From: a virus
DNA: 64,000 nucleotides
Reading direction: 5' to 3' (one strand)
Virus record (IMG/VR): IMGVR_UViG_3300008262_003578
Under the pieces are notes generated by a model, which was not told the DNA's origin, did not search any database, and worked only from the letters and a program-made list of their open reading frames with translations. Both the position numbers and the translations under genes were made by a program. Positions 15,353-55,471 of this stretch are shown here, one piece after another. Positions within the stretch are counted from its first letter, which is position 1; each line of letters opens with the position of its first letter.

Positions 15353-15928
15353 ATGGCAAATAAAAAAATATCGTATACAACTAGAGATTTCCAATCAATT
15401 AGGACTGAGTTAGTTAATTTCACTAAAATTTATTATCCTGATTTAGTTGAAAATTTTAATGACGCTTCGGTATTCTCAGTATTACTTGATTTAAATGCGG
15501 CTGTTACTGACAACCTACAATTTAATATTGACAGAAGTATTCAGGAGACGGTATTACAATACGCACAACAACCATCATCAATCTTTAATATTGCAAGAAC
15601 TTATGGTTTAAAAATACCAGGTCAAAGACCTTCTGTTGCATTAGTTGATTTCTCAATTACGGTACCAGCATTAGGTGATAAAGAAGATTTAAGATATTGT
15701 GGTATATTAAGAAGAGGGTCACAAGTTAATGGTGCGGGGCAGTCATTTGAAACTGTATATGATATTGATTTTGCGTCACCTACTAATTCCGAAGGTTATC
15801 CTAATAGATTAAAGATACCTAATTTTAATTCAGATAACAAGTTAGAAAATTACACTATTGTTAAACGAGAAACCGTTGTTAATGGGTATTACAAGTGTTC
15901 TATTAAAAGACGGAACTCAATATACTAA
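15353..15928 (+). CDS. Baseplate wedge gp6-like, N-terminal fragment (frameshifted)
   Basis: YTTRDFQSIRTELVNF...IDRSIQET...IARTYG matches the gp6/baseplate-J N-terminus; the last ~13 codons (YYKCSIKRRNSIY) look out of frame. Confidence 0.8.
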   Translation: MANKKISYTTRDFQSIRTELVNFTKIYYPDLVENFNDASVFSVLLDLNAAVTDNLQFNIDRSIQETVLQYAQQPSSIFNIARTYGLKIPGQRPSVALVDFSITVPALGDKEDLRYCGILRRGSQVNGAGQSFETVYDIDFASPTNSEGYPNRLKIPNFNSDNKLENYTIVKRETVVNGYYKCSIKRRNSIY

Positions 15929-17105
15929 TGTACCAACACCACAAGAATTTTTAGGGTTAGATAATAGATGGTATGAGGTTAGTGCATTAGCTGAAGATAG
16001 AGTTTTTGTTGAAGACCCCACTAAAGTATCTGATAAACCTGGTATAAAGGTTGGTAAATACATACAAACAAGTACTAAATTTATTACAGAATATACACCT
16101 GAAGGTTTCTTAAAAATGACATTTGGTGGAGGTAGTCAATCGGCGGATGAACAATTAAGAGAATTTGCTAGAAATGGATTTAAATTAGACTTATATAAGT
16201 ATTCTAATAATTTAGCGTTAGGAAGTACTTTAAAAGGTAACTCAACTTTGTTTATACAATATAGAGTTGGTGGTGGAACTGGTAGTAATTTAGGTGTTAA
16301 TGTTATTACTCAAATTGGAACTGTTTCTTTCTTTGTAAATGGACCTTCACAATCATTTAATACTACGGTAGTTAATTCACTAAGTTGTACTAATGTTACT
16401 GCTGCAATTGGAGGCGCTAATTTCCCAACAATGGAGGAGGTTAGAAATTTGGTCGGATTTAACTTTTCATCTCAAAAAAGAGCCGTAACGGTTAACGATT
16501 ATGATTCATTAATTAGAACAATGCCTTCACAGTTTGGGGCACCTGCTAAAGTTGCCATCACAGAAGAAAATAATAAAATAAAAATACAAATGTTGGCGTA
16601 TGATGAGTCAGGTAGTCTGACTGAAATCCTATCAAATACGTTAAAAAATAATGTTGCCAATTACCTTTCAAATTATAGAATGATTAATGACTATATTTCT
16701 GTTGAATCTGCTAATGTTATTGATTTAGCTTTAAACATTGATGTGGTGTTGGATAACAGTCAGACTCAGGGAGCCGTTATTTCACAAATAATTAATTTAG
16801 TTTCTGATTATTTTGACCCAATTAATTTACAAATGGGTCAAAATGTTAATATATCTGAAATTAGAAAAGAGATTCAAAATCAAAATGGGGTTATTAGTGT
16901 ATCTGACATTAAAGTCTTTAATAAGGTTGGTGGACAATATTCATCATCCCAAACATCCCAAAGATATATTGATAGCACAACTAAAGAGATTGAATTAATT
17001 GATGACACAATATTTGCGGAACCCAATCAAACTTACCAAATCAGGTACGCAAATAAAGACATTAATGTTAGAGTTAAAAATCTATCTACCGTTAATTTCA
17101 GTTGA
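15858..17105 (+). CDS. Baseplate wedge gp6-like, C-terminal fragment (+1 frame)
   Basis: YRVGGGTGSN, AAIGGA, QKRAVTVNDY motifs of gp6; continues the previous ORF in another frame from ~15886. Confidence 0.8.
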   Translation: MLNEKPLLMGITSVLLKDGTQYTNVPTPQEFLGLDNRWYEVSALAEDRVFVEDPTKVSDKPGIKVGKYIQTSTKFITEYTPEGFLKMTFGGGSQSADEQLREFARNGFKLDLYKYSNNLALGSTLKGNSTLFIQYRVGGGTGSNLGVNVITQIGTVSFFVNGPSQSFNTTVVNSLSCTNVTAAIGGANFPTMEEVRNLVGFNFSSQKRAVTVNDYDSLIRTMPSQFGAPAKVAITEENNKIKIQMLAYDESGSLTEILSNTLKNNVANYLSNYRMINDYISVESANVIDLALNIDVVLDNSQTQGAVISQIINLVSDYFDPINLQMGQNVNISEIRKEIQNQNGVISVSDIKVFNKVGGQYSSSQTSQRYIDSTTKEIELIDDTIFAEPNQTYQIRYANKDINVRVKNLSTVNFS

Positions 17106-29800: not shown

Positions 29801-30157
29801 GCTTATTTATTAAATCAATATTTGACCGCCAACGGTTATACATTAAATGATTGTTTAATAAATTCATTAAACTCAAGTTGGTTTGTTGATATTAGAATAA
29901 ATGATGTGGTAATTGTTCAAACACCATTCTTTAATGGGGTGGGATTAACAGTACCTAATATTAGTTATCCGACTACAACTACGGCTTGGTTATCAGGATT
30001 AACTGATTCATTAGAATCTTTAAAAATCTATGGATATGATTATTATTTTACAACTGAAGATACTGTTGTTGTATTTAATAATATTTGTTCTGAAGATGAT
30101 GATGGTGTTAATTTAAAAATTAATGTCGGAATAAATTTTAATATATTATGTAATTAA
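26801..30157 (+). CDS. Baseplate gp7/P2 gpI-like tail protein (1118 aa)
   Basis: LLKNLAQTLGW...YLFKSKGTRKSIETLLTLIG resembles the P2 gpI/gp7 wedge motif. Confidence 0.65.
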   Translation: MAIKKYTCPPQKASGAGTFSDELVGFQLVQGGGLTQGNFEFTTSVTEKVNRNFNTGVFSNPINLEGLGVNSIDESKALFENNFKVYPNFDLSQITNFTLYGSMVKRMSVSVEKIINYFPGAIESNFLGKDYTTGPSATNIIYNPQFDETSFDLSISKISNPFGVDFSVNATRNMELNEVEVSELRNMTTQYGKYSLYLNDNGYSVKRIVSTTSLTSGILTIVVEGNPFSGESTTNQTLIIRPNDLEVNKVLNESLDEVEDFLLNRNVNPKYTATFKIPKVGDDGTYYTEYQNLTWPLLGKWNLDIITGAFTNYLNKLNEVSISFDEYKTNLISRFLTTGAFNEFDTIGRKVEKVLQIYGRSFDETKKFIDALAYINSVNYNVGNDIPSQLLKNLAQTLGWRTNISPISNEELLNSVFGQKNTDKSAFSGVDSVMTPDELNYQYYRNLVLNSAYLFKSKGTRKSIETLLTLIGAPEALVEFNEYVYLADQKINMTQFDSYYAQISGGTYVQNTPALDPSYLYSIMGVTYTGFTTQVTLQDVNIGREEYPIDDNGFPSAPEDTEDYFFQIGSGWFEQTPQHRALEQVDLTNSVFTGSNPNYQTVLEPYSYGQVYLNRFREFPFMDIGFRLRPTIDNNKSWTDREIGLRSNLDGNYNARYFTSDDKLVLNVKNVDLFLNPAQGIAYDIWYMSRQYNFPIPNEGLNYVPQISQFYSISSIYQPGSVDITYSASTIIPPLFDITFNFTNVLGTISGDVSVTTGITISAGSTTGVTNVILPDDYSGLTLTSTFTNINANPSEISYGLSVVPSFISGTSETVLPTQFYTVSPINIYPNKGGIDWTEINPQPKIQTFFEFAQTFWTNTINVRDRQFNSTRTGGYPTLGSIFWRYLESEGRIGVKNDNFSYKTMIEYVNGLGDYWIRLVEQMIPATTIWNTGVKYENSIFHRQKFVWRRQRGCEIIPVPCKPCELTTNIFPVDCPVQSTECPVYPWDTNPQIQQFSGVLAYLLNQYLTANGYTLNDCLINSLNSSWFVDIRINDVVIVQTPFFNGVGLTVPNISYPTTTTAWLSGLTDSLESLKIYGYDYYFTTEDTVVVFNNICSEDDDGVNLKINVGINFNILCN

Positions 30158-33033
30158 TGTCTTGTCCTTTATCATATAGTTTAAATATAACAGGTGATTG
30201 TTCTAATATAAATGTTGGGACTTTTGAACTTAGTATTCTTGGTACGGCACCTGATTATACAATACAATGGATTAGTCCTGCATCTTATGGTACAATTGCT
30301 TTAGGACCTGGGGTTACAACATATAGTGAGAGTGGATTATCTGCCGCGACTTACACATTTAATATTATAGATAGTTGTGAACCTAATACAGTAGTTCCTG
30401 TTAATGTTTATATATCAAGTGGGACTTGTGTATCTATTGAATCGTTTGAAGATACTTTATGTGGTGAGAATAATGGTTCTTTAAGTGCTGTTACAAGTGG
30501 GTATTATGGGACAGCAACTTTTTCATTGTATGATTCTGTTTATGGTTTTATAATGTCAGCATCAACCGCTGGTAATTCTTATCAGTTTACTAATTTATCC
30601 GCAAGTACATATTATGTAATTGCTAATGATGGTGGTGGTTGTACAGGTCAAAGTGAATCTGTTATAATTAAAGACTCAAGTACCATAGATTTTGGTTTTT
30701 ATGTTGTTAATGATGCGGGATGTGCGGTTAATTCAGGTAAAATATTTATAACAGGGTTAACGGGTAATCCTCCGTACACTTATTTATGGTCTAATGGTCA
30801 AACAACATCAAGTATTAGTGGATTAACCGCAGGGTTTTATAATGTTACGGTAACTGATAGTACAGGGTGTGCGGTTAATAAAGTAACTTCAGTTTCAGAA
30901 GTACCTAGTGTAGGTATTGCGTCTATTTTAACAACAGACCCATCTTGTTATTCTTCGGATGGTGAAATTACTGTTATTGTTACGGGCGGTACTTCACCGT
31001 ATAACTTCTCCGCCTCAACATTAGGTAATTACTTTACATTTGACACTGAATACACATTTACTAATGTATCTAGTGGGAATTATAGTATATTAGTGACTGA
31101 TGCGGGACTTTGTACTACAAGTGCAACAATAACGGTCACAACTCCAGGAGGATTTTCGGTTGTATCGTTTTCGTATTCTCCAACGGTATGTGGGGCATCT
31201 GGATATGTCACGATAGTATTGAATGGAGGGTCACCACCTTACAACTACACTTTAAGTGAAACAGGTGGGCCAACTACAACGCAAACAACAAATAGTTCAA
31301 CTTGGACCTTTAATAATTTATTCTACGGTGAATATACTTTAACAATATCTGACGATGGTCCTTGTGAATATAGTAATACCTTCACAATTGAGAATGATAA
31401 TGCGTTTATTTTGTCAACAAGTGTTACAGGTACTACTTGTGGTGATGATAATGGGATAATAACTGTTGAAGTTTCAGGAGGAACACCTTCTTACACATAT
31501 ACTTTAGATGGTAGTGAAATTGTTATTAGTCCTTTAAGTTCGGTAACTTTTACTAATCTAACATCAGGATTACATAGTATAAATGTTGTGGATGATAATG
31601 GGTGTACCCAAACAATATCGGCAAATGTGGCAACATCAAGTGATGTTGATTTTATTTTAGTACCGACCGATGCTTTAGGGGGTAATAATGGTTCAGTAAC
31701 AGCGTTAATAACTAGTGGAGAACCACCATTCACATTAACTTGGAGCCCAAACGCTAGCGGACAAACAGGGTCAACTATAACGGGGTTAAGTGCTGGAACC
31801 TACTCATTGACTGTTGTTGATGACAATGGGTGTGAGTCAACTACGGAAGTTATAGTTAATGGTAATGTTTTATTATCATCTTATCAAGTTTATAGCGTTT
31901 GTGATTCTGACTTATTAAATTATGGTGAAATAATTTTAAAAGGACCTAAACAGATGTTACTTGATGGGTTTTATAGTTTAAGTTCGGGGGATACAAATTG
32001 TATTTTGAATCAGGCTATATTTGAAGCATCCGTTACAGTTAGCGGAGTTACCACAACCCAAACATTTTTTACGGGAGAAACTTTAAATGATTACCCAACT
32101 ACCCAACAATGGAATGATGTTATTGGAAGTTTAATATTAGGGTATGATGGTATTGGTTCTGTTATTTTTGATATTGAAACTAATCAAATGACTATTTTAA
32201 CTGATTGTAATTCCGAAATTTCATTAAATGATGCTAATATTATAATTAATATGATAATTCATTACGATATTTCGTGTGTCGCTTGTTATTGTCCCGTACC
32301 TGAATTTACCCCTATTAATTGTGAAATAACTGAAGAGTATTGTGAAACCGAAGAAACTAAAGTAATCTATGATATTAAATGGCCTTTATTTGGAATTGAT
32401 TTATTAGACAATTTGGATATTATACCTACTAGATGTCAAGAGTTACCAAATTATCCTGATTGCGGTGTTATTGAGAGTAAACAAATTGAGTTTAGAAATG
32501 CTAGAAATGCCTATTTGTCTTATATAAATAATTATCTTTTAGCCCTTTCAGTGGGTAGAATTAGTTATGCCCAATCCATTCCTGTTGTATTACCACCATC
32601 TAGATACGAGGGTGATTATTTTTACAATGGGCCTGAAAATGTTGGGTGGACGCAATTCAAGGTAATACAAGGATGTAGTTGTAAAAAAATATTTGAGGAA
32701 AATGGTTTAGTTGGGCCTCAATATGACTTTGATATCGTATGGTTAACTGAAGTCCAATCATATGGTGATTTACCATTAACAGGTAATTTTGGTGAATTTT
32801 GTTTTGTTATAGACGATGGTGTTTTTTATAAATGGGACCCTAATACAAATACGTGGATTAATGAAAGTTCACCAATAATAGGTTATCCTGATATTGAAGA
32901 TTGTGCTGCGGTACAAAGAGCTCAAAGAGATTATTATCTTTTATCATTAAACCAACTTATGTTGGTTTGGAGGTCTTTTACTTGGTCGTCATTTCATATC
33001 CCATTATACCAAATTTTTAAATATAATAGTTAA
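30157..33033 (+). CDS. SprB-repeat / Ig-like virion protein (958 aa)
   Basis: Repeated GxIxVxVxGGTxPYxY/W...YxVTVTDxxGC units; Cys-rich C-terminus. Confidence 0.75.
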   Translation: MSCPLSYSLNITGDCSNINVGTFELSILGTAPDYTIQWISPASYGTIALGPGVTTYSESGLSAATYTFNIIDSCEPNTVVPVNVYISSGTCVSIESFEDTLCGENNGSLSAVTSGYYGTATFSLYDSVYGFIMSASTAGNSYQFTNLSASTYYVIANDGGGCTGQSESVIIKDSSTIDFGFYVVNDAGCAVNSGKIFITGLTGNPPYTYLWSNGQTTSSISGLTAGFYNVTVTDSTGCAVNKVTSVSEVPSVGIASILTTDPSCYSSDGEITVIVTGGTSPYNFSASTLGNYFTFDTEYTFTNVSSGNYSILVTDAGLCTTSATITVTTPGGFSVVSFSYSPTVCGASGYVTIVLNGGSPPYNYTLSETGGPTTTQTTNSSTWTFNNLFYGEYTLTISDDGPCEYSNTFTIENDNAFILSTSVTGTTCGDDNGIITVEVSGGTPSYTYTLDGSEIVISPLSSVTFTNLTSGLHSINVVDDNGCTQTISANVATSSDVDFILVPTDALGGNNGSVTALITSGEPPFTLTWSPNASGQTGSTITGLSAGTYSLTVVDDNGCESTTEVIVNGNVLLSSYQVYSVCDSDLLNYGEIILKGPKQMLLDGFYSLSSGDTNCILNQAIFEASVTVSGVTTTQTFFTGETLNDYPTTQQWNDVIGSLILGYDGIGSVIFDIETNQMTILTDCNSEISLNDANIIINMIIHYDISCVACYCPVPEFTPINCEITEEYCETEETKVIYDIKWPLFGIDLLDNLDIIPTRCQELPNYPDCGVIESKQIEFRNARNAYLSYINNYLLALSVGRISYAQSIPVVLPPSRYEGDYFYNGPENVGWTQFKVIQGCSCKKIFEENGLVGPQYDFDIVWLTEVQSYGDLPLTGNFGEFCFVIDDGVFYKWDPNTNTWINESSPIIGYPDIEDCAAVQRAQRDYYLLSLNQLMLVWRSFTWSSFHIPLYQIFKYNS

Positions 33034-33044
33034 ATATAATTTAT

Positions 33045-33551
33045 ATGGATATTTGTGATTATCTAAACGGAAATATTATTGGGACTGGTACTACTGAGTC
33101 TGATTGTACTACTTGGGGGGATATATATTTATATGCTAATAATTCAAAAAACGCATTCATCCAAGCATTAAAACAATTTATAAACGCTGCAACACCATGT
33201 ACTTCAGGTGAAACTTGTGGTGAGGTATACCAAGAAAAAATATACCAAGATTTTTGGGAGGGATGTTTCATTGATTACCATAAAAAATTCCAAGTGTTTT
33301 TTAACATGATGCAATGTTCACCACAAACAGGGGTTCAAAATGAAAGTATTAATTTACCAACAAGTGGAGGTACTATGGTTTCTTATAATTACACTGTGGA
33401 TTATGGGGATGGTAGTTTTGATTTAACGATAGCCGAAGAATATCAAACAATGGAGGCGGAATTTATGTGTTGTATTAAAAACATAATGGTATTAATAATG
33501 GGTGAAACTTTTGAAGGTACATCATACGTCAATTTTAATTACATCACTTAA
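33045..33551 (+). CDS. Cys-rich hypothetical protein (168 aa)
   Basis: Clean ORF following the SprB-repeat gene. Confidence 0.7.
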   Translation: MDICDYLNGNIIGTGTTESDCTTWGDIYLYANNSKNAFIQALKQFINAATPCTSGETCGEVYQEKIYQDFWEGCFIDYHKKFQVFFNMMQCSPQTGVQNESINLPTSGGTMVSYNYTVDYGDGSFDLTIAEEYQTMEAEFMCCIKNIMVLIMGETFEGTSYVNFNYIT

Positions 33552-33594: not shown

Positions 33595-34578
33595 ATGGTT
33601 AATAATTTAAAATTTGTTTCAGCACAACCTGATGTTCCATATTTTCATTGGCAAATAAAAGTCTACGTACATAATTTTATTGAAAAGGGTATAAATCCAA
33701 ATAACATTCACGTTCTTTTAGCGATGGTTCACGGAAAAAAAGAACCTAGTGAAGAATCATTACGTTTAAAAGATATGGGTATAAATGTTCATCATTATGT
33801 TGATGAGAGAGAAAAAAAACATTATATCCCTAACATTAAACCGTTTTTAATTTATAAATGGCTAGAAGAATATCCTGAATATGGTAAATCTTTTTTTCTG
33901 CATGATGCTGACATTATTTTTAGAGAGTTACCCGACTTTGATAAATTAATGGGAGATGATGTAATTTATCTTTCCGATACTGTAGGTTATATTGGGTACA
34001 ATTATATTATGGATTGTTGTGAACGGTATGAGAAACAACACCCAAATTCCGAAAAAGGTCAGTTAATTCAAGAAATGGTTGATATTGTTGGGATTGACGT
34101 TGAATGTGTTAAATGTAATCAACTTAATTCAGGTGGAGGACAATATATAATAAAAAACACTGATTCAGAAATTTGGAAAAAAATATATGACGATTGTGTT
34201 CCATTATATGACCAAATGTTAAATTATCAAAAGAGATTCCCTATAAGTCCTGGTGAGATTCAGTTTTGGACCGCTGAGATGTGGTCAGTATTATGGAACT
34301 TATGGTATTTTGGTAAAGAAACTAACATTACCAATGATTTAGATTTTTCTTGGGCGACTGATACTGTTAATTTATATGAAAAAAAACCAATACTTCATAT
34401 GGCTGGAGTGACTCAAGATTTAAGAAATACAAAATTCTATAAAGGGGATTATATTAATCAGGACCCACTTCAAAAACTTGAAGAAAATCCTAACTATTTT
34501 AATTATATAGATAAACATAGCTCAACCATTAAATATATTGAAGTTATGAAGTCATTAATTAATAAAAAAACCAAATAA
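33595..34578 (+). CDS. GT-A glycosyltransferase, GT95/GT96 (HPAT/SGT1)-like peptidyl O-glycosyltransferase
   Basis: Colinear motifs YFHWQ, YIPNIKPFLIYKWL, LHDADIIFR (DxD), SGGG, WTAEMW, ITNDL, KPILH, FYKGDY correspond to plant SGT1 motifs as I recall them. Confidence 0.75.
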   Translation: MVNNLKFVSAQPDVPYFHWQIKVYVHNFIEKGINPNNIHVLLAMVHGKKEPSEESLRLKDMGINVHHYVDEREKKHYIPNIKPFLIYKWLEEYPEYGKSFFLHDADIIFRELPDFDKLMGDDVIYLSDTVGYIGYNYIMDCCERYEKQHPNSEKGQLIQEMVDIVGIDVECVKCNQLNSGGGQYIIKNTDSEIWKKIYDDCVPLYDQMLNYQKRFPISPGEIQFWTAEMWSVLWNLWYFGKETNITNDLDFSWATDTVNLYEKKPILHMAGVTQDLRNTKFYKGDYINQDPLQKLEENPNYFNYIDKHSSTIKYIEVMKSLINKKTK

Positions 34579-34605: not shown

Positions 34606-35463
34606 ATGTCAGAAAACGTTAATGAATGTTCACCTATAACCATTTTCCCTATGGGTGTGGTATGTGTTGTGACTAATCCTAGTAAACCTAGAGCATCTAA
34701 CGGTACCGCAACTTTAATTATAACAGGAGGGACACCACCATATAATATTGTGTGGGAAAATGGGAATAATACAGTTTCAATAGATAATCTGTCGGAAGGG
34801 TCTTATTCGGCAACAATAACTGATTATTATGGTGATTTTATTATTAATACAACTTGTGTTCTAACAACTCAGGGGACAACTACTACCACAACAACATCAA
34901 CAACAACATCTCAACCAACTTATGATTTTTGTATGGTTATTTCATATTACGATTATGTTGGTAAACAAGTTACTGAAGTTAACTTGCTAATTCACTTTAA
35001 CCCTAATGGATTATATGACGGATACCCAACTTGGATTTCAGATGATATGTTATATTCTATAATATGGGATACAGTTGACAACAGATGGGAATTGGTTGAC
35101 ACATTAACTAATTTAGTTGTTATAAATAATAACCCAGCATACCCACCATTAAGTGGTTGGAACATATTAGGTGTTGATGGAAGTGTAACTGTTTACGAAG
35201 GTGAATGTCAAAATAATGATAATTTAACCATAAGTGCAAGTGTTAATTATAAAGGTTGTGATTACAGTTGTTTAAATTCTATCACAATTACTGGTGGCGG
35301 AGGGGTACCACCTTATCAATACTCCATAGATGGGGGGGTTACTTGGGTGAGTAGCCCAATATTCCAAGGAATATGTAATGGGTTATATTCACCACAAATA
35401 AAGGATTCATTGGGTACTATCGTCGCTAGCAATAATATAACAGTTATAGGAATACCTTGCTAA
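34606..35463 (+). CDS. SprB-repeat protein with poly-Thr linker
   Basis: GTATLIITGGTPPYNIVW and ITITGGGGVPPYQYSIDGG repeats separated by TTTTTTTSTTTS; TATTTATA at 34584. Confidence 0.7.
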   Translation: MSENVNECSPITIFPMGVVCVVTNPSKPRASNGTATLIITGGTPPYNIVWENGNNTVSIDNLSEGSYSATITDYYGDFIINTTCVLTTQGTTTTTTTSTTTSQPTYDFCMVISYYDYVGKQVTEVNLLIHFNPNGLYDGYPTWISDDMLYSIIWDTVDNRWELVDTLTNLVVINNNPAYPPLSGWNILGVDGSVTVYEGECQNNDNLTISASVNYKGCDYSCLNSITITGGGGVPPYQYSIDGGVTWVSSPIFQGICNGLYSPQIKDSLGTIVASNNITVIGIPC

Positions 35464-35493: not shown

Positions 35494-37929
35494 ATGAGTT
35501 ATATAATAAAAAATACATCAGCGTTAATTAATAGTAGGTTAACTGATACGGGAAGACAAAGGTTATCCGAAGGTAATTTTAATATTTCATATTTCCAAAT
35601 TGGGGATAGTGAGGTGTCATATGATGTATTACCAAGTTCGTATAACCAATATAATACGATGATATTGGAACCAGCATTTAATGCTCAAAATTCAAGTGGA
35701 GTTCCTCAATCAAACAAACAAAATGTTAAATATCCTTACTACGTTGATGGTTTTACGGGTAATACTTATGGGATTCCTTATATGGATTCAGTAGTAAGTC
35801 CTGTATATAATAGGGCGGAGCCTAGAGGTTTTTTTACGGGAATTACGGTTAATGATTTTACATCTTGGAGTGCTTATACTGATAATAGTCATACTATTAA
35901 CTCTAATTATATAGTTGATATGACTACATTAAATGGGTCAAATATCATTGAAATTATTTATTCTGGTTGTAACCTAAATATAGGTAGATTACCTCAAGTT
36001 GGTGATTTTATTACAATATATTATGATGGTATGGCTAAACAAGATTGTGGGTGTGGCACTGAAACTACCACAACAACCACAACCACCACTATACCACCAA
36101 CCACAACGACAACGACAACAATACCTTGTGAAACAACTACTACTACAACAACAGTGTTCCCAACACCGACCCCTGTAGAAGTACCTAATTGTGCGATGTC
36201 AATGTATAGCTGTTATCCAATATTAACATATAGGATTATTGATGTATGTCATAACCAAATCACATTAGATAGACCTACACCTGACTTTACTTATTTGTTG
36301 GGGAATTGTTATTCCCGAACTTTAATATACCCACCAGCAATGGTACCTTTTTATGATAGTGAAACTCCCTTACAACATTTTGGAATTGATGTGATTGATT
36401 TTGAATCAGTTTGTAATACTGACCAATTAGATGTTAAGATATGGAATATGAATATTCCTTGGTCAGAAACTTTAGCTGGTATTAATAATTCGGTATATAA
36501 AGGATTTAGTGACTTTGGTTCGGTTGATTATATTGGAACTAAAGAATATTTGGGGTATCAATCAAGTTCAGGTCAGACCGATACTGATTCGGTATATTTT
36601 TATAATTCATTTGATGAAAAGGTTGTGGTAACACCTGAAGAACAAAAGGCTATTGCTATTATTCATTACACTAATCAAACTATTGATTTTGTTTATGGTG
36701 AAAAATTCGCATTAGAACCATTAGACCCGAATGTACCTGAAGATACTTTAGGACAAGCAAGAAATTTTAAAATGTGTTTACCTTGGTTAATGTGGCATAA
36801 AAACCCTGATTGTTGTCAAGGGCAATGTTTTTATGTGGACCCTCCAGGATTTGAGGAGTTTGATTTATTTCAAGTAGAATATATTGAGTCTAAGAAAAAC
36901 ATTGATATGAATTTACCTGGTATTCGTTACTATCATCTTTGGGATACTAACCCTAATAGTAACGGATTACCTAATAGAATTGGGAAAGTATTTCCTGACC
37001 ACAAAATTGTGGTTATAGACGATGAGGAGATTATAGCTGCAATGTCGTATAAATCAAATAGAAACTGGACATTACCAGCACCTAAAACATCTTTAGTTAC
37101 ACCTAATACTTGTGGAAGTGAAAGTCAATCAACCCAAGGAGTTTTAACGGGTAATACTGAATATATGTATGTTACTTATAGATTAAGTAATGATATGTCA
37201 TTTACCAATTCATTACATTGCAATTATTACATTAAACAACAGGGTCCTAATCTAAATTGTAATGATATTTCATCACAAAATGTTGCGGTGAGATTCGGAG
37301 GTGAATTTGGGTGTTTAAATTACCAACCGTACAATCCATCTACAACAACTACCACAACAAGTGTCTATACAACAACTACAACAACCATTTGTCCGACGAA
37401 TTGTGATATTACAACAGGATATTTAGGAACCAAATTTGAAATAATTTGTCAAAAAGTAACTGGTGATGGAAGACCTGACCCTACGGATTGGAAAATTATT
37501 GATTTCACCGATTTATTATCTGCAACCACAATTAATGGTCACATTACTCAAGATGGATTGACAGGTACAACATTTGTGATTACTGATGATTTATATAACA
37601 ATGCCCCCACTTATGATTTAAGTGATTATCTTGATTTAACAACACTTGGTGATACTGGTACCCAACTTAATTTTGGTGATGAGTTTTATTTTTATGGAAC
37701 ACTTGAAACGGATATTCAAGCAACTATATATGAGATGAGGTACAAAATTAATTTAAGTCAAGCCGAATTCCAAGCAAGTTCAAACCCTGGATGGGTCAAT
37801 GGTACAACATCTTACATAACTGAAGTTGGACTTTATAATTCTAAAAAAGAGCTTATGATTATATCAAAATTGCAATCACCAACACCAAGACAAGGGATTC
37901 AGCAATTTGTTATAAAATTTGATTTTTAA
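35494..37929 (+). CDS. Baseplate/tail-fibre attachment-like structural protein with poly-Thr inserts
   Basis: N-terminal LTDTGRQRL...YFQIGDSE and C-terminal YITEVGLYNSKKELMIISKL resemble tail-collar/DUF3751-type motifs; two Thr-rich inserts. Confidence 0.6.
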   Translation: MSYIIKNTSALINSRLTDTGRQRLSEGNFNISYFQIGDSEVSYDVLPSSYNQYNTMILEPAFNAQNSSGVPQSNKQNVKYPYYVDGFTGNTYGIPYMDSVVSPVYNRAEPRGFFTGITVNDFTSWSAYTDNSHTINSNYIVDMTTLNGSNIIEIIYSGCNLNIGRLPQVGDFITIYYDGMAKQDCGCGTETTTTTTTTTIPPTTTTTTTIPCETTTTTTTVFPTPTPVEVPNCAMSMYSCYPILTYRIIDVCHNQITLDRPTPDFTYLLGNCYSRTLIYPPAMVPFYDSETPLQHFGIDVIDFESVCNTDQLDVKIWNMNIPWSETLAGINNSVYKGFSDFGSVDYIGTKEYLGYQSSSGQTDTDSVYFYNSFDEKVVVTPEEQKAIAIIHYTNQTIDFVYGEKFALEPLDPNVPEDTLGQARNFKMCLPWLMWHKNPDCCQGQCFYVDPPGFEEFDLFQVEYIESKKNIDMNLPGIRYYHLWDTNPNSNGLPNRIGKVFPDHKIVVIDDEEIIAAMSYKSNRNWTLPAPKTSLVTPNTCGSESQSTQGVLTGNTEYMYVTYRLSNDMSFTNSLHCNYYIKQQGPNLNCNDISSQNVAVRFGGEFGCLNYQPYNPSTTTTTTSVYTTTTTTICPTNCDITTGYLGTKFEIICQKVTGDGRPDPTDWKIIDFTDLLSATTINGHITQDGLTGTTFVITDDLYNNAPTYDLSDYLDLTTLGDTGTQLNFGDEFYFYGTLETDIQATIYEMRYKINLSQAEFQASSNPGWVNGTTSYITEVGLYNSKKELMIISKLQSPTPRQGIQQFVIKFDF

Positions 37930-37933
37930 AATT

Positions 37934-38542
37934 ATGAGTAAAACCTTAAAAGAAAGCCCAAAAGTTTTGGGTTTAGATATCTCAACTCGTACCATAGGGT
38001 GGGCGTTATTTGATATAAAAAATCAAGAATTATTAGAATTGACTCACATATCGCCAAGACCAAAATCAAAAGATAATGGTGAGAATAGTAAAATAAAAGA
38101 ACTATTATTAAAGGCCGAGATATTTAGAACCAAATTACTTGAATATAAAAATTTAGGTATCGTTAAAGTCATTATAGAAGAACCATTATTGAATTCAAAC
38201 AATATTAATACGGTCCAAACCCTATTAAGATTTAATAGTTTTCTTTGTAAAGAAATATATGATATGTTAGGGATTGTACCTGAGTTTATTTCTACGTATA
38301 ATTCAAGAAAGTTTGCATTTCCTGAACTAGTCCAACAAAATGATAAAGGGAAATATGTTTTATTTGGTGGTTTACCAAAAGATATTGATAAGAAAATGAT
38401 TATATGGGAAAAAGTTGCAAAACTTGAACCACAAATTCAATGGTTGTATACTAAGAACAATACCCTTAAAAAAGAAAATTTTGACCAAACAGATGCCTAT
38501 TGTTGTGTCCTTGGTTATATGAAACAACTTGAAGTTTGGTAA
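37934..38542 (+). CDS. RuvC-like Holliday junction resolvase / RNase H-fold nuclease
   Basis: VLGLDISTRTIGWA, IIEEP, DQTDAY acidic catalytic pattern; ATG at 37934. Confidence 0.75.
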   Translation: MSKTLKESPKVLGLDISTRTIGWALFDIKNQELLELTHISPRPKSKDNGENSKIKELLLKAEIFRTKLLEYKNLGIVKVIIEEPLLNSNNINTVQTLLRFNSFLCKEIYDMLGIVPEFISTYNSRKFAFPELVQQNDKGKYVLFGGLPKDIDKKMIIWEKVAKLEPQIQWLYTKNNTLKKENFDQTDAYCCVLGYMKQLEVW

Positions 38543-38782
38543 TTATACACTTTCAGTAAACCATTCTGGACCTGATAAAATAGTAATCATTTCTGAGTTA
38601 TTATACGGACCTTCCATATAACTTAAATCAATAAGAAATGTAGGGTCAGTTTCCGATTGCCATCTTATAAAAGTTTTAGTACCGTCAATACTAAATCCCA
38701 ATTCAGAAATACTTCTTTCTAAAATTTGATTAAAATCAACTTTGCTAAGTTCTGATGTTAAAATAATTAAATACTTTCTCAT
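38543..38782 (-). CDS. Small protein coupled to the LamG adhesin (possible fibre chaperone)
   Basis: ATGA overlap with the 1750-aa gene; SIDGTKTFIRW...ILSGPEW pattern. Confidence 0.6.
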   Translation of the reverse strand: MRKYLIILTSELSKVDFNQILERSISELGFSIDGTKTFIRWQSETDPTFLIDLSYMEGPYNNSEMITILSGPEWFTESV

Positions 38783-41700
38783 AAACCAAATCTATCTTTT
38801 TCTGAATTAAAATTATTGGTGACCTCAGTAGAGCTTAATTCTCTGTTATATATTCTAATAATAGCGATATAACCTTGGAAATATTCTTGAGGCGAACCTG
38901 CTTGGAACCTACCAACCCGTAAACTAGAAACGTTTGTAACTGTCCCAAAAGGGTCCCCATTACTACCAACTGAAGTACCGTTAAGATATAAATTACCACC
39001 ACTTGGGCCGTGTGTTGCAACAACGTGAGCCCATGTATTTGCGGTTAATACTGTTGGTGATGATGTATAATTAATTGCCGAACCATCAGCAATAAAATTA
39101 ATATTTCCCGATGTATTAATTCTCAATCTATAACCGTTATTACTATCTTTTGAAATTATATTAGGGCTATTAGTAAACCCTGTTGGTCTAATAAACGCCT
39201 CAACAGTACAACCCGTTGATAATTGTATTGATGCGTTATTACCATCTAACCCATCATCACCAGCACCATCAAAAAGTAAACTACCATAAACTTGAGGTAT
39301 ATTTGGAAAATACGTAACACCCGAACTTAAGACGGTATCGTTATTATTTGTTGTTAAATCAAGTAAATTGGTACTCCCTGAATAAGAATTTTCATTACCC
39401 GCATCATACCATAAAACTAATCCTGACTGAGTTAGATTACAACTTGGACAACACCCCACGGCTGTTACAGACCCAGCACCTGAACGGGATGGGGTAGTAC
39501 TGGAACATACATATACAGGACTCTGAAAATTATTTATAATAATTGGTGATGTTGCGGCCTCATCACAACAAGGGGTAAATGTAAATGTTGTATTCGCAGG
39601 AAATGAGTTTGACACCAATTCATACTGAAGACAACTACAAGTTGGTGTTGGTGTTGGTGTTCTTGTTGGAGTAACGGTTCTTGTAGGTGTATTTGTTGGT
39701 GTTCTTGTTGGAGTAAGAGTTCTTGTTGGTGTATTAGTAGGTGTTCTTGTTGGAGTAACGGTTCTTGTAGGTGTATTGGATGGTGTTCTTGTTGGAGTAA
39801 CGGTTCTTGTAGGTGTGTTGGTAGGTGTGTTGGTAGGTGTATTTGTTGGTGTTACAGTATTAGTTGGGGTATTAGTTGAAGTTCTTGTAGGTGTATTTGT
39901 TGGTGTTCTTGTTGGAGTAACGGTTCTTGTAGGTGTATTTGTTGAGGTATTGGTTGGTGTAACGGTTCTTGTAGGTGTATTTGTTGGTGTATTTGTTGAG
40001 GTATTGGTTGGTGTGTTAGTAGGTGTCCTTGTAGGTGTTACAGTATTAGTTGGGGTATTAGTTGAAGTTCTTGTAGGTGTGTTGGTTGGAGTATTTGTTG
40101 GAGTAACGGTTCTTGTAGGTGTATTTGTTGAGGTATTGGTTGGTGTAACGGTTCTTGTAGGTGTATTTGTTGAGGTATTGGTTGGTGTGTTAGTAGGTGT
40201 CCTTGTAGGTGTTACAGTATTAGTAGGTGTCCTTGTAGGTGTTGCAGTATTAGTAGGTGTTTGAGTGTTACTTGGTGTTGGTGTAGGAGTTACATCATCA
40301 GTACAGATTATTAAAGTTGCGCTTGATAACGTACCAGCATCTACTACCGCAAAATCTTGGATATATAATGACCAAGTACCATTTGAATTTGGTGGTTGTA
40401 TTCCGTCAAATACAGTAAACTCAGGTGAGTTACCAGGAGCCACCAAAGGAGGTACTGGACAAGGGGCACTAAACGTCATTGAGTTTTGTATTGTAGAGTT
40501 ATTACCAAATGTACCTGAACTAAATCCATTCCAATCAGGCGTTGAGAAAGACGTTAATGTAACTGTTACATTAGTTGCGGTTGTAACACCACCTATTCTA
40601 CCCGCAATTAATGAATAAGTTGAATTATCAGGTGCAACTAAAACCATCCCAACGTCCCCAACCGCATTGTGAGAATAACCACTAAGTACAAATTTAACAT
40701 CTGTAATTGGTGTAACTAAACCTGATACTGTAAAAGTTATAGGGTATACTGATGCGGTTGTATTATCGTTAATTATAATATTTGTCTGATTTGAAGGGAA
40801 TGAAAAACAGAATTGTGAAGGGGTTTCAGTTAATGTAGGTGTGTTTGTAGGTGTTGATGTTCTTGTAGGTGTATTTGTAGGTGTTGATGTCCTTGTAGGT
40901 GTGTTTGTTGATGTCCTTGTAGGTGTTGATGTCCTTGTAGGTGTGTTTGTTATAGTGTTAGTAGGTGTTTGGGTAGGTGTTTGGGTAGGAGTTGGTGTAT
41001 TAGTTGGTGTTCTTGTTGGCGTCACCGTATTGGTCGGGGTGTTAGTTGAGGTTCTTGTCGGAGTGTTAGTTGGTGTAGATGTTCTTGTAGGTGTATTAGT
41101 CGGAGTATTTGTATTAGTCGGAGTATTAGTCGGAGTATTAGTTGGTGTTGGTGTTGGAGTTGGTGTTGGACATATACCTCCAGAACAAAATCCACCTATA
41201 GTGAATTCTAATTTAGGACTACTAACAATAGGATTACTACCACAAACTCTAAATGAATCATTACCTGGATTTGTAACACCTGTAACGGTAACATTTGAAC
41301 AATCAACATAACTATATGTGATAAAACCCTCTATTGTTGTATCTAAAAAGTCAATACAATTACATGGGTATTGAGTTGGTGTTGGTGTTACAGTATTAGT
41401 TGAAGTGTTAGTTGGTGTCTGAGTATTTGTTTGAGTTGGTGTCTGAGTACTTGTTTGAGTTGGTGTTACAGTATTTGTAGGGGTATTAGTTGGTGTATTC
41501 GTTGCGGTTCTTGTAGGGGTATTAGTTGGTGTGGATGTTCTTGTAGGGGTATTCGTTGAGGTATTCGTAGGAGTGTTAGTAGGAGTGTTAGTAGGAGTGT
41601 TAGTAGGAGTAACGGTATTTGTTGGTGTATTCGTTGCGGTATTTGTTGGTGTATTTGTTGAGGTGTTAGTAGGTGTAACAGTATTTGTTATCGTGTTTGT

Positions 41701-44031
41701 TGGCGTATTAGTTGGTGTATTTGTCGGTGTTATAGTGTTAGTAGGAGTATTAGTTGAGGTATTCGTTGGAGTATTAGTAGGTGTAACAGTTCTTGTTGGT
41801 GTGTTAGTCGGAGTTTGAGTTGAAGTAATAGTTGGAGTTACGGTATTTGTAGGAGTGTTTGTTGGTGTCTGAGTTAATGTGTTCGTTGGTGTTAAAGTAT
41901 TAGTCGGTGTATTGGTTGGAGTTTGTGTTATTGTACCTGTAGGTGTAATTGTGTTTGTAGGTGTGTTCGTAGGGGTTTGAGTAATAGTGTTGGTTGGTGT
42001 TAAAGTATTTGTAGGTGTATTTGTAGGGGTGATAGTAGATGTTACAGTATTTGTAGGTGTATTGGTTGGTGTTTGAGTTGATGTATTAGTAGGTGTTATA
42101 GTGTTAGTAGGTGTAACAGTTCTTGTTGGAGTATTAGTAGGTGTGTTAGTCGGAGTTTGAGTGGAAGTATTAGTTGGCGTTACAGTATTCGTTGGAGTAT
42201 TTGTAGGTGTGTTGGTCGGAGTTTGGGTTGAAGTGTTTGTTGGGGTTACAGTATTAGTTGGAGTATTCGTTGGTGTGTTAGTTGCAGTTCTTGTTGGTGT
42301 AACGGTATTCGTTGGAGTATTTGTTGATGTGTTCGTAGGTGTTTGAGTTGATGTGTTTGTTGGGGTAATAGTATTTGTCGGCGTATTAGTTGGTGTATTT
42401 GTTGATGTGTTTGTAGGTGTATTTGTTGGAGTACCTGTGTTAGTGGACGTATTAGTCGGAGTTTGTGTTGAAGTTATTGTCGGTGTAACAGTATTTGTAG
42501 GTGTATTTGTTGGAGTTTGAGTTGAAGTATTAGTTGGTGTGACAGTATTCGTAGGTGTATTAGTTGGTGTTTGAGTGGGGGTCTCAGTATTAGTTGGGGT
42601 TATCGTGTTAGTTGGCGTTTGAGTAGGTGTTTCAGTATTAGTTGGGGTTATGGTATTAGTTGGCGTTTGAGTAGGTGTCTCTGTGTTTGTTGGTGTGATT
42701 GTGTTTGTCGGTGTGACTGTGTTAGTTGGTGTTTGAGTAGGTGTTTCAGTGTTAGTTGGAGTAATAGTGTTAGTTGGGGTAATAGTGTTAGTTGGTGTTA
42801 TTGTGTTCGTAGGGGTGTTCGTGGGAGTTTCAGTGTTAGTTGGTGTTATTGTGTTCGTAGGGGTGTTCGTAGGGGTCTCAGTATTGGTTGGTGTTATTGT
42901 GTTCGTAGGGGTGTTCGTAGGGGTCTCAGTATTGGTTGGTGTTATTGTGTTAGTCGGCGTTTGAGTAGGGGTCTCAGTATTGGTTGGGGTTATCGTGTTA
43001 GTTGGGGTAGGTGTAGGAGTTTCAGTGTTAGTTGGTGTTATTGTATTTGTTGGGGTGTTCGTAGGGGTCTCAGTATTGGTTGGTGTTAATGTGTTCGTTG
43101 GAGTGTTCGTTGGAGTTTCAGTATTAGTTGGGGTAATGGTATTAGTTGGGGTATTAGTAGGTGTTTCAGTCGGAGTTGGGGTAATGGTATTAGTTGGCGT
43201 TTGAGTAGGTGTTTCAGTATTAGTTGGAGTTATTGTATTAGTTGGTGTAATTGTGTTAGTCGGTGTTTGAGTAGGAGTCTCAGTATTAGTAGGTGTTAAT
43301 GTATTCGTAGGTGTGTTCGTAGGGGTCTCAGTATTGGTTGGTGTTATTGTGTTAGTCGGTGTTTGAGTAGGAGTTTCAGTAGGTGTATTCGTCGGAGTTT
43401 CAGTAGGTGTGTTCGTTGGTGTTTCAGTAGGTGTATTTGTTGCAGTTTTTGTTGGTGTGTTCGTCGGAGTTTCAGTTGGTGTGTTAGTTGGTGTTTCAGT
43501 TGGAGTGTTAGTTGGCGTCTCAGTTGGAGTGTTAGTAGGGGTCTCAGTTGGTGTATTTGTTGCAGTTTTTGTTGGGGTGTTAGTAGGTGTTTCAGTTGGG
43601 GTGTTAGTAGGTGTTTCAGTTGGGGTGTTAGTAGGTGTTTCAGTTGGGGTGTTAGTAGGTGTTTCAGTTGGGGTGTTAGTTGGAGTTTCAGTTGGGGTGT
43701 TAGTTGGAGTTTCAGTTGGGGTGTTAGTTGGTGTTGGAGTTGAAGTTGGAGTCGGTGTTGGAGTCGGTGTTGGAGTTGGGGTTGGGGTTGGGGTCGTAAT
43801 TAGTGATATACAATAAACAATTTCAAATCGTTCACAACCATCATTTGTTATAATTTTAATACCAACTGCAGGTGCGCTATCAAATTGACTGGGTAATAAA
43901 AATGTTGTACTTGGAGGTACTAAAGTATTAATTGTTGCAATTAGAACACATTGATTACCAAATACGTCACAAACGTAAATCTGATATGGGTTTGGTAAAC
44001 CTGATATGTTACTTATTTCAATTGAAGTCAT
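38779..44031 (-). CDS. Mucin-like Thr/Pro-repeat virion adhesin with proprotein-convertase P-like domain and C-terminal LamG/ConA domain
   Basis: Over 1000 aa of [12 protein letters not shown] repeats; P-domain-like [13 protein letters not shown]...[10 protein letters not shown]; Lam[10 protein letters not shown]...WAHVVAT...LYLNG...IRIYNRELS; TATTTAT just upstream. Confidence 0.85.
39640..40288 (-). repeat. Thr/Pro coding repeat, Arg-containing units ([11 protein letters not shown])
   Basis: Visible in DNA and translation between the P-domain and LamG. Confidence 0.9.
40830..41166 (-). repeat. Thr/Pro coding repeat ([10 protein letters not shown])
   Basis: Visible in translation between the Cys-containing module and the P-domain. 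Confidence 0.9.
41368..43797 (-). repeat. Main Thr/Pro coding repeat (~810 aa)
   Basis: [28 protein letters not shown] units; exact 24-bp tandem copies gttggggtgttagtaggtgtttca at 43571-43666. Confidence 0.92.
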
Positions 44032-44082: not shown

Positions 44083-46170
44083 TTATGCGAGACACTTTTC
44101 ACAGGATGCTGTAACGGATATAATCGGTGAACCTAAAATTATGTTAGGGTATGTAATTGAACAAAAACTAATTGAACCTTCATCAAAAGTATATGGTGAC
44201 GGTAATGATTCACCACAACATGGAGTATATTCAAATGTGATAGAATTGCCTTTTGTTGTATTAACAGTATAAGTATAACACTCAGAAAAAGTTGTACAAA
44301 CAGCACAACCACCTAAATTAGATAATCCTAAAGGACCAACATTTAAAATTATATTATTAACCCCGATTACTTGAGTTGTAATCCCAACATATGAAATACA
44401 TTTAGTTAATCCGTCAACAGTTGAATAGAATACTTGATATTGTTCTAAAGTCCCTCCTGATGGGATAGTTACGTTATTAGTGGTATAATACATTGTTCCA
44501 TTGTAACAATCTTGAAATTGTTTACTCACAGGACAATTAATCATTTCATTAACCGTATTAAATGTTACATCACCAGAGTATTGACACGGCCTTTCAACAA
44601 TACCCGAAGGTGTTGGTGTTATTGTAGGAGTCGGGCTTGGTGTTGGCGTAAACGATAAAATAGTTGCACCAACATTTACACCTCCACAAACATTTGTTGG
44701 ACTTGGTGTTGGGGTAGGTGTGGGTGTTGTTGTTTGAGTTGGGGTGGGGGTAGGGGTTGGCTCAAACTCGCAATTAAATAACGATTCAAAATCAAAAGTA
44801 TCACAAGGTGACGTTGTTGTAGTTGTGGTTGAACAAGTTCCTTCAGAAAAATATTCTGAAAGTAAATCAGGACAAACACTAACACAAGGTGATTTACCTG
44901 AAAGAAAGCAAGGACCGTCTAAAGACATCGCTAAACACCATTGAGTGTTACCTGTTGAATAATAAATAAATAAACCATTAGATTCCCCAACCCAATAAGG
45001 TTTACCGTTATGTAAACCACTCTCAATGTAGTTATCATCATATGATATATTTTCCGTATTTGAAACACAATAACCTGATGTGTTACATATATCACCACAA
45101 CAATCACTTTCTTCAGAACAATTTTCTTCTTGTAAAACAAATTCACTTAAAACACTTTCACCTGAAACTATTATATCATCTTGATAATAATAAAGTGTTG
45201 GTGACATTGGTGTTTCGCAGAATTCATATGAAACACAAGTTCCACTACATTCAGAATAAACATATCCTGAAGGACAAGTATAACCTGATGAATCGTAATT
45301 ACCTAATGTGTCTTGAACTATAGTAAATTCTGTTTGGCCTGATGTTGTGAATATTATATAAGGTTCTAATGCCGCATAAGTCGTTAAACCAGTTAATGTT
45401 GCTAAATCACCATCATAAATCTCACATCCAAAACCACCTTGACTACCAGCATTTAATCCGTAAACCTCCAAAGTATGGTCACCTGCACCAATCTCAACGG
45501 GGTATACGTTCCATCTTTTAAAGGATTGACCGTTACTCGTTGTGAAAGGATTAGGAGGTAAAGAAGTATCTACAATAAGATTACCATCTAAGACAAGTCT
45601 AAAATCATCATCAGCCCCAATTCCAACCCAGTATGTTTTTGTTTCAGTAATCCCTGATAAACAAGATGAAAATCCTAACCATTTGTTGAATGGTGGTGCA
45701 CTTCCACCTGTTGTTGGCCAAATGGCACATCTATTTAAAGGGCCTTCAGAAATAGTGTCACCAACATTTTCCCACGAATCAACACCTGTAACTATAGTAT
45801 ATGTTGCACCTGAACCACATTGACAAAATCCTGGTTGGTAAAAATAACTACCAAATTGTGAATACACAAAAAATGATGTGGCAACCGCCGATAATGGTGA
45901 TACAGGAGGTGTTGCGGCTGTTGTAATTTCTCTGTAGCAAGATGTTTCGTCATAAACGACCCATCCGTCACCCGCACAAATACTACAATCTGCGGAAGTT
46001 GTCATACAATAACAGTAATACCCTCTATCTGTAAATTCATTTACAACAGGGGTTGACTCACAATCTAAAAAACCATCAATAAAGACGGTATTATCGGTGT
46101 ATAGGGTATTACCTGTTGATGAACTAATATCATTAGGGTCAATTCTGACTAATAAACAATTACAACTCAT
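44083..46170 (-). CDS. Cys-rich adhesin-like protein with PA14-like domain and Thr/Pro tracts
   Basis: YWVGIGADDDFRLVLDG...EIGAGDHTLEV is PA14-like; STTTTTTS and PTPTPTPT linkers. Confidence 0.65.
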   Translation of the reverse strand: MSCNCLLVRIDPNDISSSTGNTLYTDNTVFIDGFLDCESTPVVNEFTDRGYYCYCMTTSADCSICAGDGWVVYDETSCYREITTAATPPVSPLSAVATSFFVYSQFGSYFYQPGFCQCGSGATYTIVTGVDSWENVGDTISEGPLNRCAIWPTTGGSAPPFNKWLGFSSCLSGITETKTYWVGIGADDDFRLVLDGNLIVDTSLPPNPFTTSNGQSFKRWNVYPVEIGAGDHTLEVYGLNAGSQGGFGCEIYDGDLATLTGLTTYAALEPYIIFTTSGQTEFTIVQDTLGNYDSSGYTCPSGYVYSECSGTCVSYEFCETPMSPTLYYYQDDIIVSGESVLSEFVLQEENCSEESDCCGDICNTSGYCVSNTENISYDDNYIESGLHNGKPYWVGESNGLFIYYSTGNTQWCLAMSLDGPCFLSGKSPCVSVCPDLLSEYFSEGTCSTTTTTTSPCDTFDFESLFNCEFEPTPTPTPTQTTTPTPTPTPSPTNVCGGVNVGATILSFTPTPSPTPTITPTPSGIVERPCQYSGDVTFNTVNEMINCPVSKQFQDCYNGTMYYTTNNVTIPSGGTLEQYQVFYSTVDGLTKCISYVGITTQVIGVNNIILNVGPLGLSNLGGCAVCTTFSECYTYTVNTTKGNSITFEYTPCCGESLPSPYTFDEGSISFCSITYPNIILGSPIISVTASCEKCLA

Positions 46171-55141: not shown

Positions 55142-55471
55142 ATGAAAAAAGTTATTGATTTTGTTAAAAAGTTTAAAATTCATATTTTGGCTACGCTTTT
55201 ATTTATTTTCCTTATGCGTTCTTGTATCAAGTCAGGTGAAGTTAGGAAATTAGATAAAGTTAAAACCGCTAATGAAAATGTTATTGATAGTTTAACACGA
55301 CTTGTTAATGGTCAAAAAGATACAATTAATAATATATCTGAAGTTATTAGACAAGAAAAAATAAAAGTCCATAGAGATTACGATGACTACATTTCCTCAA
55401 AAGATAGAGGACCGCAACTTATGGAATTACATGCGGTTGTTAAGAAAAATATTCAAGAACTTGAAAAATGA
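55142..55471 (+). CDS. Signal/TM-anchored coiled-coil protein, possible lipoprotein or spanin
   Basis: MKKVIDFVKKFKIHILATLLFIFLMRSC then coiled coil; ATG 55142 (55103 lies inside the terminator). Confidence 0.6.
   Translation: MKKVIDFVKKFKIHILATLLFIFLMRSCIKSGEVRKLDKVKTANENVIDSLTRLVNGQKDTINNISEVIRQEKIKVHRDYDDYISSKDRGPQLMELHAVVKKNIQELEK

Follow-up and report, generated by a model that had tools for sequence, protein, structure and literature searches.

The 64,000-nucleotide (nt) stretch of viral DNA considered here (IMG/VR record IMGVR_UViG_3300008262_003578, hereafter the window) encodes, at positions 33595-34578, a protein of 327 amino acids (aa) that is predicted to be a soluble glycosyltransferase remotely homologous to the HPAT family of plants. 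The gene is followed by two genes whose products carry runs of threonine (poly-Thr), and the features on which the argument depends are listed below.

33595-34578, plus strand: predicted soluble GT-A glycosyltransferase, HPAT-like, matching phrog_4417; 327 aa, DxD residues D104/D106, H268.
34606-35463, plus strand: 285-aa protein with SprB (Ig-like) repeats on either side of a poly-Thr linker (residues ~91-102); candidate acceptor.
35494-37929, plus strand: 811-aa conserved protein with poly-Thr linkers at residues ~191-221 and ~615-632; main candidate acceptor.
38779-44031, minus strand: 1750-aa TPTN-repeat mucin-like protein, 36 % Thr, with a C-terminal Laminin_G_3 domain.
44083-46170, minus strand: 695-aa protein with one poly-Thr tract and several Thr-Pro (TP) repeats; possible acceptor.
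30157-33033, plus strand: 958-aa SprB-repeat Ig-like adhesin or fibre-like protein; conserved upstream neighbour, given as context.

The enzyme gene belongs to a co-oriented block in which neighbours are separated by gaps of 44, 28 and 31 nt, and a relative of the 285-aa protein stands directly after it in the related loci examined. The poly-Thr tract of the 285-aa protein reads TTTTTTTSTTTS, and the 811-aa protein contains five tracts, including TTTTTTTTT, which are disordered in its AlphaFold2 model (predicted local distance difference test score, pLDDT, of 52 for the model). The Thr codons are mixed (ACA, ACT, ACC and ACG), and the tracts are therefore kept as amino acids, not as a DNA repeat. 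Runs of at least eight Thr, Ser or Pro residues are limited in the window to four consecutive genes, those of the 285-aa, 811-aa, 1750-aa and 695-aa proteins, with an isolated run of six Thr at 55468-56298. An earlier note, made from the sequence of the window, had pointed to poly-Thr in the two genes after the enzyme gene and to a TPTN protein of more than 1000 aa some 4 kb further on, and both are present as described. The 695-aa protein has no family match.

The enzyme frame runs from ATG to stop, and the description of its product as a 327-aa DxD protein lacking a transmembrane anchor is borne out by the frame, the motifs and the Kyte-Doolittle profile, in which no membrane segment appears (top 19-residue mean 0.83). 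The motifs claimed for the phage protein are likewise all found in the order given (YFHWQ, YIPNIKPFLIYKWL, LHDADIIFR, WTAEMW, ITNDL, KPILH, FYKGDY), the DxD being D104-A-D106 inside LHDADIIFR. The protein matches phrog_4417, annotated as of unknown function, over its full length (E 2e-71, with residues 5-320 aligned to positions 1-290 of a 293-position profile). A Pfam scan of the enzyme returned no family at E <= 0.1, Glyco_transf_8 (GT8) included, and scans of the Firmicutes homologues and of most neighbour proteins were likewise blank. A PDB sequence search with the single enzyme gave no match, and a PDB search with the family profile gave chance or weak matches only (TAL-effector repeats; GNPTAB, E 0.19).

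The AlphaFold2 model of the enzyme, built on a 63-sequence alignment, has a pLDDT of 97.5, and every one of the closest solved structures is a retaining GT-A enzyme of GT8 type or near it (Z 13-15): glycogenin (14.8), the Skp1 alpha-galactosyltransferase (14.4), LgtC (14.0) and GlyE, which takes part in the glycosylation of serine-rich-repeat adhesins (13.1), with LARGE1, the O-antigen enzyme WbbM and UGGT as further near folds. The fold, the DxD and a C-terminal His place the protein in the GT-A superfamily, in which its matches span GT8, GT24 and GT6 enzymes. Glycogenin, GlyE and the Skp1 enzyme, which act on proteins and align over 209-232 residues, resemble it in being cytoplasmic and in binding metal through DxD and His; sequence identity to these GT8-type enzymes is, however, 9-13 %, and the phage enzyme has no Pfam Glyco_transf_8 match. 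GlyE extends an existing N-acetylglucosamine (GlcNAc) and does not start on peptide. Across the 63 relatives (30-80 % identity), D106, H268, Q223, W230 and K283 never vary and D104 hardly does, as would be expected of an active metal-dependent transferase. The model and the conserved residues support the assignment of the 33595-34578 product as a soluble DxD GT-A glycosyltransferase.

Two alternatives bear directly on these structural data. A GT-A fold that lacks catalytic activity and acts as a chaperone or structural partner of the poly-Thr proteins is extremely improbable: the enzyme gene does lie inside a structural gene block and the activity of its product is a prediction, but among relatives of 30-80 % identity the DxD, the His and other polar residues show little or no variation, and they align with the invariant residues of the HPAT profile. 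Transfer of a sugar-phosphate or other group to poly-Thr, in the manner of Stealth proteins or of GlcNAc-1-phosphotransferase, is also very improbable, although it would explain why the profile weakly matches the GNPTAB catalytic domain (E 0.19), why one member weakly matches Stealth_CR2 (E 0.17) and why the structure matches GNPT (Z 9.9). These matches are non-significant, whereas the GT8-type retaining enzymes score far higher (Z 13-15) and the homology to HPAT is significant.

The strongest evidence on what the enzyme does lies in its co-variation with poly-Thr, described here first for its own lineage. Two samples were drawn from IMG/VR, the first consisting of 80 loci picked by the enzyme and the second of 80 loci picked by the 811-aa protein, of which 77 had enough upstream sequence to be scored. 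Gene order is kept in the first sample (SprB protein, enzyme, 285-aa-like protein, 811-aa protein, RuvC-like protein), and poly-Thr tracts are concentrated 1-8 kb downstream of the enzyme gene, with almost none upstream. In the second sample, poly-Thr is present in 57/62 orthologues of the 811-aa protein that have the enzyme upstream and in 0/15 that have no enzyme within 8 kb (Fisher p 4e-12). Because its poly-Thr co-varies with the enzyme in this way, the 811-aa protein is regarded as the main candidate acceptor. The enzyme was absent from the whole record in all ten enzyme-free records searched, two of which are 100 % complete according to CheckV (322 and 257 kb), and the same search recovered it in 5/5 positive controls. 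Counted over whole genomes, poly-Thr tracts number 3 and 0 in the two complete genomes that lack the enzyme, against 8 and 10 in two enzyme-bearing genomes. On a tree of 811-aa orthologues with Thr/Pro tracts masked, enzyme presence requires at least six changes, and among six independent pairs poly-Thr shifts in the same direction as the enzyme in 4-5 and in the opposite direction in none.

The same association recurs in phages of other groups. A homologue lies near a tail or small decoration protein with a poly-Thr tail or linker in each of the seven Bacillota phages that were checked, as well as in Chryseobacterium phage MA9V-3 (PV245944), and the poly-Thr gene is directly upstream of the homologue in every one of these phages except Enterococcus phage Planchet. 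The homologue follows directly on a poly-Thr-tailed major tail protein in Enterococcus phiFL1A, Lactococcus 1706, Staphylococcus SA2 and Clostridium phiCTP1, and on a protein of ~125 aa, half of it poly-Thr, in Lactobacillus iLp84 and Iacchus. In Planchet it stands after the major capsid gene, with a Thr-tailed major tail protein ~1.7 kb downstream. In MA9V-3, a cultured Bacteroidota phage, the upstream gene encodes a 23-residue Thr/Ser linker and a second nearby gene a 42-residue one. Besides MA9V-3, the cultured carriers include Enterococcus phages phiFL1A and VPE25, Lactobacillus phage Iacchus and Lactococcus phage 1706. Co-occurrence of the enzyme gene with poly-Thr on structural proteins, as would befit a dedicated tag for virion glycosylation, is found in these phages; the tagged proteins, which lack annotation in the window, are annotated as major tail proteins in the phages of Bacillota. 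Among 80 diverse loci of bacterial genomes, poly-Thr occurs within 3.5 kb of 35/46 single-domain forms (no more than 400 nt upstream in 30 of the 35) and of 2/34 long fused forms (Fisher p 1e-10 for the contrast).

In Staphylococcus phage SA2 (L005:3117-3930), the major tail protein terminates in TTTTTTTTP and an overlapping open reading frame (ORF) at 3667-3930 continues with ~60 residues of poly-Thr/Ser, an overlap that could reflect a programmed frameshift giving a long-tailed variant of the tail-tube protein.

DNA or the glycans of the host surface are modified by many glycosyltransferases of phages, and the enzyme could likewise act on a non-protein acceptor (a small molecule, the DNA of the phage or a glycan of the host envelope), with the Thr-rich linkers being coincidental features of late gene blocks. 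The presence of the lipopolysaccharide and O-antigen enzymes LgtC and WbbM among the near solved folds fits such an acceptor. It is nevertheless unlikely, because gains or losses of the enzyme coincide with those of poly-Thr within one orthologue at several independent points of the tree while the TP repeats and the locus stay, homologues adjoin poly-Thr-tailed genes in distant phage groups, kin of the enzyme are fused to peptide-binding PqqD domains, and the membrane anchor that would be expected of an envelope-glycan enzyme is missing. The roles of phage glycosyltransferases are reviewed in PMC12619734.

The relationship of the enzyme to plant peptide glycosyltransferases, on which the earlier note had built its case by assigning it to GT95/GT96, holds at the level of remote homology and stops short of the family threshold. 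By the model's own threshold the enzyme is outside Pfam PF23452 (HPAT), which it does not match at E <= 0.1 (gathering threshold 23.9 bits); 2/63 relatives match at E ~0.09, and five related phage records show no match at E <= 10. On the other hand, the best named non-viral structural match is an algal HPAT cluster (Chlorophyta, 99 % of members PF23452-positive), with a template modelling (TM) score of 0.72 over 292 residues, both sides being predicted models, whereas solved GT-A structures reach TM <= 0.47 by Foldseek. Language-model neighbours of the enzyme include many viral clusters with a minority of PF23452-positive members. In addition, a bona fide PF23452 protein was found in a Candidatus Microthrix metagenome-assembled genome (NODE_3), 4 kb from a phage-type long form of ~1000 aa, and 129 relatives of this protein were gathered, many of them fused to PqqD. 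Alignment by hhalign of the phage family profile with 33 bacterial HPAT-family proteins, most of them PF23452-flagged, gave a probability of 95.9 % (E 5.8e-9, 255 columns) with the collinear motifs PYxxWQ, DxD, WxxDM, IxH and KxxY, which are those that the earlier note had given for Arabidopsis SGT1. The profile-profile and structural matches together indicate that the homology to the HPAT (GT95-like) family is real but remote. When proteins of 593-2000 aa were searched with the profile, all matches were fused forms from bacteria or phages, and none bore the name SGT1.

The PqqD domain is a peptide-binding element in pathways for ribosomally synthesized and post-translationally modified peptides (RiPPs). 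The bacterial HPAT-PqqD fusions are ~380 aa long, some sources label them only as 'PqqD family protein' (Pseudomonadota), and their architecture suggests an unrecognized class of peptide glycosyltransferases. The PqqD-fused and long fused bacterial relatives belong to the same superfamily as the phage enzyme, and their context indicates peptide substrates; they differ from it in being chromosomal, in having a second domain and in their rarity beside poly-Thr (2/34), the enzyme being phage-borne and single-domain. The Candidatus Microthrix locus also adjoins a gene for an NTP_transf_5 nucleotidyltransferase.

Plant HPATs are Golgi type II membrane proteins with a GT-A fold and a DxD motif that start sugar chains on peptides (PMC8012813). 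The phage enzyme has in common with plant and algal HPAT1-3 (GT95, PF23452) the fold, the DxD and the collinear profile motifs, but it is soluble where the plant enzymes are Golgi-anchored, no hydrophobic segment corresponding to the type II anchor of CAZy families GT95 and GT96 being present. The acceptor probably differs as well, being poly-Thr for the phage enzyme, whereas the plant hydroxyproline O-arabinosyltransferases (HPAT, GT95) use hydroxyproline (Hyp) with UDP-L-Araf as donor, and the related serine alpha-galactosyltransferase SGT1 (GT96) uses Ser in Ser-Hyp motifs with UDP-Gal.

A plant-style activity, in which the enzyme would glycosylate Ser or Hyp in Pro-rich TPTN/TP mucin-like fibres with the 1750-aa protein as the main target, would agree with the remote HPAT homology, with the position of the TPTN protein 4 kb away and with the fact that the first linker is (TP)n, not poly-Thr, in most 811-aa orthologues. 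The distribution of TP repeats makes it quite unlikely, however. (Thr-Pro)n tracts number 16 and 11 in enzyme-free genomes against 13 and 9 in enzyme-bearing ones, and TP repeats are kept in 9/15 enzyme-free 811-aa orthologues, none of which has poly-Thr. The anticipated co-occurrence of the glycosyltransferase with Thr/Pro-repeat genes is accordingly seen for poly-Thr (57/62 against 0/15) and not for TP repeats, which show no co-variation with it. Because TP repeats are equally common without it, the TPTN mucin-like protein is doubtful as a target. Prolyl hydroxylases, nucleotide-sugar genes and other transferases were sought in related IMG/VR records, and no 2-oxoglutarate-Fe(II) prolyl 4-hydroxylase-type domain was found in the three near-complete related genomes. 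The plant-style Hyp glycosylation raised by the earlier note appears unlikely for this reason.

A better candidate for the glycosylation of TP repeats is provided by a gene for a PF11397 GlcNAc-transferase (GT60-like), which is present in 5/5 near-complete related genomes, enzyme-bearing or not (E 1e-50 to 1e-62), and stands directly after a T/P-rich gene in 3/4 genomes examined. Its positions in the related complete jumbo-phage genomes are as follows.

G001, 300579-301454: PF11397 gene.
G002, 15955-16827: PF11397 gene.
G003, 42592-43464: PF11397 gene.
G011, 181141-182016: PF11397 gene.
G013, 253246-254133: PF11397 gene.

The PF11397 enzyme may be a second initiating enzyme serving the TP repeats, and a division of labour in which poly-Thr belongs to the HPAT-like enzyme and TP repeats to the PF11397 enzyme is a reasonable idea on this distribution of genes. 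Each related genome also has 7-8 GT2-type matches, so that a first sugar could be extended.

Taken with the conserved catalytic-type residues, the co-variation and the recurrence in unrelated phages suggest, with a probability of roughly 70 %, that the 33595-34578 product is a poly-Thr O-glycosyltransferase acting on the late proteins of its own phage. The enzyme would be soluble and cytoplasmic and probably made together with the late genes, would bind a uridine diphosphate (UDP) sugar from the host pool via its DxD/His metal site, and would attach the sugar to the hydroxyl groups of Thr in disordered poly-Thr linkers or tails before or during particle assembly. The anomeric configuration is probably retained, by analogy, since the relatives are GT8-like and GT95/96-like. 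The acceptors in the window would be the linkers of the 285-aa and 811-aa proteins and probably also the 695-aa protein, and the outcome would be linkers that are stiffer, more hydrophilic and protease-resistant, with a glycan-covered surface. The proposal that the phage glycosylates its own virion thus keeps its core, given that the enzyme is tightly associated with proteins bearing Thr tracts in its own lineage and in unrelated phages alike, and loses the TPTN protein as the target.

Several observations weigh against this interpretation. The sign test on the independent pairs reaches only p ~0.06 because the transitions are few, and five orthologues have the enzyme gene and lack a strict poly-Thr tract. 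The 285-aa and 811-aa proteins gave no PHROG, PDB or phage-database match, so that their membership of the virion is a prediction, and the AlphaFold2 fold of the 811-aa protein is poor (pLDDT 52). In genomes of Bacteroidota and Actinomycetota the long fused relatives have no poly-Thr proteins beside them, and the family is therefore not restricted to a poly-Thr acceptor. The sugar and the acceptor put forward for family members are, moreover, drawn from comparison.

To our knowledge, experimental proof that virions are glycosylated exists only for phages of Actinobacteria. Mycobacteriophage glycosyltransferases have been proposed or shown to glycosylate capsid and tail-tube subunits at their terminal tails (Freeman et al. 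2023, as cited in PMC12619734). The proposed poly-Thr system resembles that of mycobacteriophages in the use of phage-encoded glycosyltransferases and in the placing of candidate acceptors on terminal tails of capsid or tail-tube subunits. It differs in its enzyme family, which is apparently another one (0/77 homologue-bearing phage records come from Mycobacterium phages), in its tag, a poly-Thr tract, and in its hosts, which are Bacillota, Bacteroidota and others, and it is known here from genes alone. Literature searches for phage HPAT/GT95 enzymes, for poly-threonine tails and for glycosylated tail proteins of Gram-positive phages yielded no account of the family or of poly-Thr tags in phages, in agreement with the statement in the earlier note that no case with this enzyme family was known.

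A broader proposal, for which the odds are judged only a little better than even, is that of a widespread undescribed system in which an HPAT-like soluble glycosyltransferase reads poly-Thr as a portable tag on capsid, tail and fibre proteins in phages that infect Bacillota, Bacteroidota and further hosts, has common ancestry with the plant extensin-glycosylating and the PqqD-fused enzymes, and in jumbo phages may be paired with PF11397 for TP repeats. If this is true, self-glycosylation of phage particles would be common and would reach dairy, enterococcal, staphylococcal and abundant freshwater jumbo phages, with a bearing on how stable phages are, how they adhere to mucus and how the immune system recognizes them in therapy. 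Plant GT95/GT96 would gain bacterial and viral relatives that bear on the origin of those enzymes, and one virus would hold two tag-enzyme pairs (HPAT-like/poly-Thr and PF11397/TP). A simple pair of enzyme and tag (~300 aa and a Thr run) would also become available for cytoplasmic O-glycosylation of recombinant proteins.

The family comprises 1429 proteins by word-filtered search and 855 by exhaustive search of 50 %-identity representatives, and the 77 records with a homologue in the phage collection are all annotated as hypothetical. The fusion partners of relatives are likewise glycan enzymes and include the PF11397 GlcNAc-transferase, O-fucosyltransferase, GT2, GT1, GT6 and GT11 domains, methyltransferases and radical SAM/SPASM enzymes. 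A locus of Chitinophaga niastensis (L110:2565-10110) encodes a 582-aa long form composed of an N-terminal HPAT-like domain and a second glycosyltransferase domain, flanked by a radical SAM/SPASM enzyme, a LanC-like protein and a further glycosyltransferase. This locus resembles a RiPP-type cluster and might make a glycosylated peptide, although no precursor peptide was identified in it.

The rest of the window is like that of a T4-like jumbo phage, with genes for a ribonucleotide reductase, a DnaB-like helicase, a UvsX-like recombinase, a primase and an SbcCD-like nuclease, and related IMG/VR contigs reach 274-322 kb. Bacteroidota are a plausible host, and a megablast search with 20 kb of the window gave no match in the phage collection. 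The placing of the enzyme gene in a 'tail operon', as earlier suggested, is only partly substantiated: a baseplate wedge gene (phrog_219) does lie upstream at 15858-17105, but the very large ORFs that follow it, two of them with SprB/Ig-like repeats, include no identified tail protein.

Within the immediate surroundings of the enzyme gene, a 168-aa Cys-rich ORF at 33045-33551, just upstream, was detected in 1/80 related loci, and this slot appears to be variable among relatives. The RuvC-like Holliday junction resolvase gene at 37919-38542 (phrog_827/159, E ~1e-6) shares 11 nt with the end of the 811-aa gene and keeps its place after that gene in 65/80 related loci. A strong local GC-skew and AT-skew anomaly between 40000 and 44000 (GC skew up to 0.69) arises because the ACN/CCN codons of the minus-strand TPTN gene read G-rich on the plus strand.

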